Source: a virus (Duplodnaviria > Heunggongvirae > Uroviricota > Caudoviricetes). From it: a stretch of 12,133 nucleotides of DNA. The notes under the pieces were generated by a model. It made no database searches and was not told the origin of the DNA. It was given only the letters and a program-made list of their open reading frames with translations. How positions within the stretch are numbered: the first letter of the stretch is position 1; each line of letters starts with the position of its first letter. The stretch is from IMG/VR virus record IMGVR_UViG_2703718828_000006; one strand, 5' to 3'. The translations under genes and the position numbers were made by a program. This document shows, piece after piece, positions 9,722 through 9,831 of this stretch.

Positions 9722-9763
9722 CACAGTATTACACTGTATTACACTGTATTACACTGTATTACC
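9722..9763. repeat. 10-bp tandem repeat (ACTGTATTAC-like, 4 copies), followed by TAGCCCCTT direct repeats at 9764..9800
   Basis: cacagtattac actgtattac actgtattac actgtattac read directly, then TAGCCCCTT twice flanking agagcctctt. Lies in AT-rich DNA between the 212-aa cargo gene and the AlpA-like gene. Confidence 0.8.
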
Positions 9764-9831
9764 CCCTATAGCCCCTTAGAGCCTCTTGTAGCCCCTTCTA
9801 ATGAGAGATATCCAGAAAGTAATTAATAAAT

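Follow-up and report, generated by a model that had tools for sequence, protein, structure and literature searches.

Helper sensing by satellite phages is known in molecular detail for P4 and the Cox protein of P2, and not for the thousands of other P4-like elements or for the Gram-negative phage-inducible chromosomal islands (PICIs). P4 is activated by P2 Cox, which binds upstream of the promoter P_LL; the boxes for Cox number at least six and are spaced 10–11 bp apart, and binding bends or wraps the DNA (PMC3936717). Excision factors have operators made up of direct repeats that follow each other at one helical turn; at least three adjacent sites are needed, and affinity rises with the number of sites. 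The winged-helix excision factors bind cooperatively and with low sequence specificity, and P4 Vis and P2-like factors also act at promoters away from the attachment (att) sites (PMC7498355; PMC11963761). In Gram-negative PICIs, alpA is induced by helper phages and its product AlpA activates the promoter of its own gene (PMC6092414; PMC11773190), and the inducer is still unidentified (PMC6092414). Here we describe a tract of tandem repeats upstream of alpA in a 12,133-nucleotide stretch of DNA (IMG/VR record IMGVR_UViG_2703718828_000006; this whole stretch is referred to below as the window), the prophage of a P4-like satellite integrated at tRNA-Leu.

The repeats belong to one longer array of units in helical phase, which is equivalent in position and form to the cassette of Cox boxes upstream of P4 vis. 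By analogy with that cassette we propose, with a probability of roughly 0.45, that the array is a set of phased protein-binding sites of the Cox-box (excision-factor operator) kind and that it controls the alpA operon. We favor this interpretation because of the anatomy and position of the array, the reappearance in other elements of a 10-bp period in sequences that are unrelated, and the way in which the repeats behave as an exchangeable cassette.

Two repeat tracts form a single phased array

Tandem Repeats Finder identifies two adjoining repeats of period 10, repeat A at 9717–9762 (4.5 copies, 94% matches, score 76) and repeat B at 9762–9797 (3.6 copies, 76% matches, score 44). On the strand of alpA, repeat A reads as three units of TAATACAGTG followed by TAATACTGTG, and repeat B as TAGAAGGGGC, TACAAGAGGC, TCTAAGGGGC and TATAGGGGG (Table 1). 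A first-pass annotation, made from the letters of the window, had described four 10-bp tandem units and two copies of a direct repeat at 9722–9800 between the cargo gene and the AlpA gene; the sequence is as described, except that the variable base, which had been placed at position 1 of the unit, is found at position 3 (A/T) of the first unit. The direct repeat TAGCCCCTT has two exact matches, at 9769 and 9789, which by themselves are not significant (at least two matches in 150 of 200 shuffles); both fall within the period-10 tract of repeat B. Within the best 80-nt segment, self-identity at lag 10 is as high as 0.80, and 200 shuffles reach no more than 0.55.

Read on the alpA strand from 9801 down to about 9680, both repeats form a single array of about 12 units with starts every 10–11 bases, spanning about 120 bp. 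The order of the units is TAGAAGGGGC, TACAAGAGGC, TCTAAGGGGC, TATAGGGGG, three copies of TAATACAGTG, TAATACTGTGG, TAATTCCTGAG, TAATATGAATCGATAAAACG and TAATAATAC. Seven GTAAT sites (ATTAC at 9686, 9706, 9717, 9728, 9738, 9748 and 9758) are spaced by 20, 11, 11, 10, 10 and 10 bases, and the four GG(G)GCT-type units of repeat B share their phase. A phased run of at least three GTAAT sites is found within the window in the array only. The 20-bp gap in the array holds an H-NS-like sequence, TCGATAAAAC, at 9691–9700. The A units are alternating TGTA/TACA half-palindromes, with a weak to modest single-strand hairpin potential (z=-2.3). The array as a whole lies 240–360 bp upstream of the alpA start codon, after a cargo gene that encodes 212 residues.

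The guanine-plus-cytosine (GC) content of the tract is 0.28–0.32, and the tract is non-coding, since relatives differ in it by 10-bp insertions and deletions. It is not a CRISPR array either, because its units are 10 bp long and follow head to tail without spacers, as opposed to CRISPR repeats of 25–40 bp with unique spacers. On both points we concur with the first-pass annotation. A scan for sigma-70 promoters and intrinsic terminators on the alpA strand between the cargo gene and alpA returned nothing, and among Rfam families only the tRNA scored above threshold in the window, with none at the tract.

Closer to the gene, the region directly upstream of alpA contains recurring motifs that had also been noticed previously and that are present at the positions given in Table 1. 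This region probably holds the alpA promoter and operator. Three or four copies of the box TCAAT(A/G)GAAT, which corresponds to the GATTCTA motif, occur here and in the relatives L009–L017 described below, and the boxes follow the type of AlpA: AATAGA is found with the AlpA types of the window, L009, L012 and L017, and AATGGA in all copies of L014–L016. The boxes are candidate AlpA operators or promoter elements. The TAGAAT within them resembles a -10 hexamer.

The P4 cassette upstream of vis

In the P4 record (X51522), three tandem 10-bp "ori type 2 repeats" are annotated at 9176–9205, about 150 bp upstream of ORF88 (vis) and inside the annotated origin. On the plus strand they read CACTTAAAGT, CATTTAAAGC and CACTTAAAGC. 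The Cox-box consensus TTAAA(G/C)NC(A/C) lies within these repeats at 9180 and 9190, and a phased run of TTAAA(G/C) is found in P4 in the type 2 repeats only. P4 also has TGT-N12-ACA at 9133–9150, with the type 2 repeats just upstream; TGT-N12-ACA is the recognised form of the Ogr/delta site in late promoters of P2 and P4. A single GTAATACAGT, identical to the repeat unit of the window, is present at P4 9371–9380 between the type 1 iterons of the origin and is kept in the P4 relative L257.

The region upstream of vis is present in 1063 E. coli genomes, and its length is 299–300 bp in all 36 of the full-length rows sampled. Among the relatives of P4 the three-unit cassette is replaced as a block, with at least four variants and with flanks that are about 97–100% identical in most sampled variants. 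On the vis strand the cassette reads GCTTTAAGTG, GCTTTAAATG and ACTTTAAGTG in P4 and TCCTTCAGAA, CCCTTTGAGA and CCCTTCCAGT in L145, L146 and L256; a third variant is found in L255, a fourth in L258, and L257 has units of the GTTTGCC type. This block replacement looks like a switching of specificity.

The two downstream operons correspond as well. AlpA of the window aligns with P4 Vis by BLASTP (25% identity over 53 residues, E=2e-7) and with a solved structure, 8c3t, described as an "AlpA family phage regulatory protein". The alpA gene heads an operon that runs to the primase gene, and this operon is the counterpart of the P4 left operon, which is driven by the late promoter P_LL. The array in the window shares with the P4 cassette its head-to-tail 10-bp units in AT-rich non-coding DNA, its location upstream of a Vis/AlpA-family gene which, in a P4-type satellite, opens an operon with the primase at its end, and the hypervariability of its sequence among relatives. 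It differs in that its units GTAATACAGT and GGGGCTAYAA are unrelated to the P4 unit GCTTTAAGTG; in that it has neither the Cox-box consensus nor an adjacent TGT-N12-ACA nor neighboring type 1 iterons; in its greater distance from the start codon; in its upstream neighbors, which are int and a cargo gene in the window and sid in P4; and in its copy number, which is 2–6 for arrays of the window type and fixed at 3 in P4. The tract therefore falls outside the P4 Cox-box cassette family, as the features that define this family by sequence fail, and is better regarded as another form of this kind of element.

Phased repeats at the same place in other genera

Twelve loci encoding relatives of AlpA (37–100% identity) were recovered, and most of them have the layout int, cargo gene, alpA; following the cargo gene, as in the window, are phased repeats of other kinds. 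In Apirhabdus (L009) there are about eight units of the type AAGGAGCTAT, AAAGGGTGAT, ... TAAGCCTCTA; in Samsonia (L016), four copies of CTATATAG; in Erwinia dacicola (L017), the units GGATCCGTTAA, GGATCCATAA, GGGTCTGTAA and AGACCTATAA; and in one Pectobacterium locus (L014), two copies of GTAGTATTAC. Another Pectobacterium locus (L013, 1–63) has a 7-bp microsatellite, (CCAATAA) in nine or more copies, which lies at the position of repeat B and reaches the end of the contig. When the window and P4 are counted in, lag 10 gives the highest self-identity among lags 4–15 in 8 of 10 loci, and the segment of best self-identity is always located 225–360 bp upstream of the start codon. Comparison of Pectobacterium L014 with L015 shows a patch of about 75 bp at the array that differs (about 55% identity) between flanks that are 97–100% identical.

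Variation among E. coli elements

A search of 5426 complete E. coli genomes retrieved the intergenic region with the array from 204 of them. Counted on the alpA strand, there are two A units in L004, L008 and L020, three in L002, four in the window and L001, and six in L003; L005, L006, L019, L021 and L022 also have three, with units diverged by point changes. The B units vary too, with two extra in L004 (3 or 5 B units among near-identical elements). L002 and the window are about 100% identical over more than 4 kb, and the sole local difference between them is one 10-bp unit. Since near-identical elements differ by whole units, the tract is slippage-prone, one of the two possibilities that the first-pass annotation had raised, and the difference of one unit from L002 at this level of identity implies that copy number changes faster than point substitutions accumulate. 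The copy-number comparison proposed there, once carried out, reveals free variation among close relatives, and the tract qualifies as a variable-number tandem repeat (VNTR). The interrupted three-unit arrays of the L005 and L019 type are constant in length across about 190 mostly clonal genomes.

Together with the roughly 100 bp beside it, alpA is 95.8–99.7% identical in all 204 genomes. The segment 9640–9860 is only 83.6–85% identical in about 200 of the 204; locally, conservation is lowest in the intergenic region, at 82–88% compared with 91–97% in the flanking genes. Within the A array of the L005 lineage, the eight substitutions lie without exception in the spacers, and the six TAATNN cores are free of them (p=0.002, with cores that were defined after the fact). 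As for insertions in the vicinity, IS1 is found within the 212-residue cargo gene in L004 (3660–4357) and L006 (3721–4418), and beside the array in L022 (1–585), where alpA has been lost.

Proposed mode of action and candidate binding proteins

We infer that a protein binds the array and affects transcription. By analogy with P4, the likeliest binder would be a Cox/Apl-type protein of a helper phage. Members of the excision-factor class, which are small proteins with a winged helix (P2 Cox, 186 Apl, lambda Xis, P4 Vis, BldC and RdfS), would bind direct repeats such as these head to tail and cooperatively, so that the DNA is bent or wrapped. The array would lie distally in the control region that serves the alpA operon, and its occupation would switch the operon on or off, perhaps by relieving the silencing of an AT-rich region. 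If the binder were indeed a Cox/Apl-type protein of the helper, the array would be the sensor of the satellite for its helper, a role that falls in P4 to the Cox boxes upstream of P_LL. The four perfect copies are probably the recently expanded core of the array, produced by replication slippage of one box, and the changes of copy number in steps of 10 bp automatically preserve the helical phase.

The suggestion in the first-pass annotation that the tract is a set of protein-binding sites is plausible and gains strength from the context, since the phasing extends beyond the perfect copies, the array has the position of the P4 Cox boxes, and relatives have phased repeats of their own. Several observations weigh against our fuller proposal, to which we assign no more than the above probability because no binder emerged, alpA is a long way off, copy number shows no constraint, and one relative has a 7-bp repeat at the same spot. 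No known box of any candidate protein matches the array. The Cox-box consensus TTAAA(G/C)NC(A/C) has no match in 9680–9801, and there is no TGT-N12-ACA Ogr/delta site in 9442–9831, the array giving TGT-N13-ACA instead. Two P2-family genomes resembling helpers, which were chosen via the portal gene of the satellite, have no phased GTAAT or GG(G/T)CT boxes; one of them is a 186-like Klebsiella phage, in whose switch region such boxes are lacking, and the other is without a switch region. The array is at a distance of 240–360 bp from the alpA start codon, the promoter scan placed no promoter, and strong conservation is confined to the 100 bp or so beside alpA. The 2–6 A units of near-identical elements differ from the fixed number of three in the P4 family, and the 7-bp repeat of L013 keeps no helical phase. 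Constraint on the box cores is weak, as the L004, L008 and L020 lineages are without the bias between cores and spacers, and the degenerate sites flanking the perfect copies could be decayed old repeat units.

Scans of viral contigs with GTAATACNNNGTAATAC and with TAATAC(N4)TAATAC(N4)TAATAC gave at least 120 matches each. Among the matches listed are unrelated AT-rich repeats, few with an enterobacterial-like GC content and none in P2-like switch regions. By eye or by pattern, none of the LexA, TyrR, IHF and DnaA boxes or the Ogr/delta site fits the array. Two further comparisons were set aside: alpA of CP4-57 in E. coli K-12 has only 43 bp upstream, shared with the divergent yfjH, and so is not comparable, and the AlpA of Pseudomonas is a larger, Q-like antiterminator.

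Alternative explanations

The main rival explanation is a neutral minisatellite, i.e. a slippage-prone repeat in a non-coding spacer without sequence-specific function, whose 10-bp period is inherited and is kept uniform in each lineage by repeated contraction and re-expansion. Such a repeat would account for the presence of 2, 3, 4 or 6 units in near-identical elements, including the single unit that separates the window from L002, and equally for the constancy of the interrupted arrays in the mostly clonal genomes, as would be expected of imperfect repeats. It is also consistent with the low local conservation of the intergenic region, with the microsatellite at the same place in L013 and with the weak evidence for constraint on the cores, and the quasi-palindromic units, with their weak hairpin potential, would favor slippage. 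We consider a neutral minisatellite a serious but less likely alternative, given that a period of about 10 bp recurs with unrelated units in several genera and in P4, that the equivalent cassette of the P4 family has a fixed length and coincides with Cox boxes, that cassettes are swapped between nearly identical flanks, and that the substitutions in the L005 lineage avoid the TAATNN cores. A different possibility is that the phased TA- and A-rich units, being bent or wrappable, nucleate silencing of the AT-rich cargo and alpA region by H-NS (or by Fis or IHF), with no dedicated phage protein involved. The low GC content and the TA steps every 10 bp over about 120 bp would suit this, as would TCGATAAAAC (TCGTTAAAAT in L005), which resembles the high-affinity motif of H-NS; Lang et al. 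in 2007 reportedly gave this motif as tCG(t/a)T(a/t)AATT. There is a precedent in the Shewanella CP4So prophage, where H-NS binds the alpA promoter (PMC5148205). Repeat B, on the other hand, is G/C-rich (GGGGC), which is atypical for H-NS sites, and the concerted replacement of cassettes in the P4 family would be left unexplained; a nucleoid-protein target is improbable. It is at the same time compatible with a binding array, through relief of silencing, rather than exclusive of it; effects of H-NS or of DNA curvature are compatible with a binding array or with a minisatellite.

The remaining explanations assign the tract to proteins of the satellite itself. AlpA, which the first-pass annotation had named as a possible binder, could bind the array as its own operator and activate or repress its own promoter, and perhaps int. 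AlpA is a homologue of Vis, excision factors recognize direct repeats in helical phase and control promoters as well (PMC7498355), and AlpA of Gram-negative PICIs activates its own promoter (PMC6092414). In L014, L015 and L016, however, the AlpA proteins are 100% identical and the arrays are different, which argues against AlpA reading the sequence of the array, and the proximal TCAAT(A/G)GAAT boxes, which track the AlpA type, are the better operator candidates. Local alignment of the attL arm with the region upstream of alpA gave no significant similarity in any locus (p=0.13–0.49), a comparison of low power that was also negative in P4, where Vis reportedly binds both. AlpA as the reader of the array is highly improbable. 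The integrase, also named previously, fares no better, and we give very little credence to the tract being a set of integrase arm-type sites or a part of the replication origin, to which the P4 label "ori type 2 repeat" points. It is true that repeat B shares the core GCCCC and its orientation with the arm repeats ATGCCCC, that the P4 record puts the 10-bp repeats inside the annotated origin, and that the single GTAATACAGT of P4 lies between type 1 iterons. The true arm sites, TTATGCCCC(C/T), are the arm repeats ATGCCCC(C/T) paired at both ends of the element, where arm repeats of the type in the P4 record (TTGGGGGCAT) adjoin both att cores (110–129 and 11794–11813); moreover, the arm repeats of L014 and L015 differ and the B-part is the same, which argues against the integrase. 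Evidence against an origin role comes from the iterons of the alpha-protein type, TGTT(C/T)CACC, all ten of which are clustered at 4622–4810; no clustered TGTTCACC-type octamers (P4 type 1 iterons) are present in 9442–9831, and a second iteron cluster upstream of alpA, as in P4, was not found.

The satellite element

The genes on the minus strand of the satellite are, in order, the integrase gene, the 212-residue cargo gene, alpA, an Icd-like gene together with several small genes, and the genes for primase, a Psu-like protein, Ogr/Delta and a cargo protein of 558 residues. Features are compiled in Table 1.

Table 1. Features of the satellite in the window, with coordinates counted from its first base.
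Feature	Position	Strand	Remarks
Second pair of integrase arm repeats	110–129		
Portal gene	309–1388	+	Full-length, P2-type (TIGR01540, E=5e-101)
558-residue cargo gene	1416–3092	-	
cos-like sequence	~3191–3213	-	Resembles P4/P2 cos junction; GCGAAGCGGGCAGGCGGGCGGGG
Ogr/Delta gene	3411–3683	-	
Psu-like gene	3683–4444	-	
TGTT(C/T)CACC, ten copies	4622–4810	both	Directly downstream of primase gene; resemble P4 type 1 iterons of ori/crr
Primase gene	4845–7517	-	Toprim and DUF927 domains
alpA	9211–9441	-	76-residue AlpA-family winged-helix protein; Pfam PF05930, E=2e-11; start from RefSeq
alpA-proximal control region	9442–9570	-	TCAATAGAAT-type boxes (GATTCTA at 9498 and 9535, GAATCTA at 9514); CACTGAAAAAA at 9484 and 9560
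Three further degenerate GTAAT sites	9686–9722	-	GTAATTC, GTAATAT, GTAATAA; phase shared with repeat A
Repeat A, four head-to-tail 10-bp units	9723–9762	-	Plus strand: ACAGTATTAC (9723), ACTGTATTAC (9733, 9743, 9753)
Repeat B, four 10-bp units	9762–9801	-	CCCCCTATAG, CCCCTTAGAG, CCTCTTGTAG, CCCCTTCTAA
212-residue cargo gene	9832–10470	-	Function not assigned; phrog_30524; stop codon 31 bp before repeat B
P4-type tyrosine integrase gene	10501–11763	-	
Integrase arm-type repeats beside attL	11794–11813		ATGCCCCC, two copies; homologous to annotated P4 attP arm repeats
GGTCT, three copies in 10-bp phase	11821–11848	-	Inside attL; candidate excision-factor (AlpA/Vis-type) site
tRNA-Leu	11928–12012	-	

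Features of the ends of the element lie at 36–51, 110–129, 11794–11848 and 11928–11947, and one base is deleted from the P4-type att core at attR. The three GGTCT copies inside attL are likely to be a site for an excision factor. The portal gene lies inside the satellite, between attR and the cargo slot on the cos side, and encodes a protein 86–92% identical to the portals of P2-family phages. It is kept in a relative (L259, 3643–4698) whose neighboring cargo gene differs. To our knowledge, P4-type satellites are not expected to carry structural genes of the helper. A 2026 paper reports that gene exchange between P2 and P4 occurs almost never at their hotspots (PMC13586616). The 558-residue cargo gene occupies the slot that P4-like satellites use for defence genes. 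Its product has no match in Pfam, PHROG or NCBIfam and only weak matches in PADLOC (DitB, E=1e-4), and L259 has a different, small open reading frame (ORF) in its place.

The stretch 8800–9100 is the most divergent in comparison with L005 (55–68% identity, with neighbors at 90% or more) and spans a plus-strand ORF of the YlcI/YnfO family that has alpA on one side and the Icd-like gene on the other; the stretch is possibly an immunity region. An RNA-family scan relaxed to E≤1 over 8500–9900 returned only a SymR-like match at 8733–8805, which is weak (E=0.044, far below the family threshold) and lies outside the repeat tract.

Comparison with known systems

Extended to P4-like satellites in general, the proposal would be that a hypervariable cassette of phased boxes upstream of alpA or vis is a sensor for a helper protein, that the type of cassette matches the Cox or Apl protein of a given group of P2-like helpers, that a swap of the cassette retargets the satellite, and that slippage in the number of boxes tunes its inducibility; the window would then show a box type (GTAATAC, GGGGCTA) not described before, in a satellite lineage whose gene order is rearranged. 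We regard this generalization as quite doubtful. A hypervariable phased cassette across P4-like satellites may be a more interesting result than the tract alone, and no description of it as a general pattern was found in the literature searched. If phased cassettes were helper-sensing sites, helper specificity would be predictable from sequence, and copy-number variation would be a simple, reversible tuning of induction. Should the tract be no more than a minisatellite, it would be a polymorphic repeat of the ordinary sort, of use at most as a typing marker for the satellite.

Of the described systems, the integrase arm repeats of P4 (TTGGGGGCAT) share with repeat B a GGGGC core in direct repeat. 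The other positions differ (GGGGCTA in repeat B and GGGGCAT in the arm repeats), and repeat B is located away from the att core and is unchanged when the arm repeats change. The array also resembles in form the operators of the excision factors named above, such as those of 186 Apl at pR-pL and attP, of lambda Xis at X1-X1.5-X2, and of P2 Cox, P4 Vis, BldC and RdfS. These likewise have three or more direct repeats, with short degenerate cores, at intervals of one helical turn; at spacings of 10–11 bp, the array offers seven GTAAT sites and four B units. It is also upstream of an operon whose first gene encodes a factor of this class, but at 240–360 bp from the start codon and with no promoter placed by the scan. 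It is longer than the known operators and consists partly of perfect repeats, and no matching set of sites was found at attL or attR. With the VNTRs and contingency loci of bacteria the tract has in common perfect head-to-tail units, the number of which differs between otherwise identical strains. It differs from these loci in that it lies neither in a reading frame nor between -35 and -10 elements, and in that a unit of 10 bp keeps the same face of the helix and would tune the number of sites rather than switch a promoter on or off.

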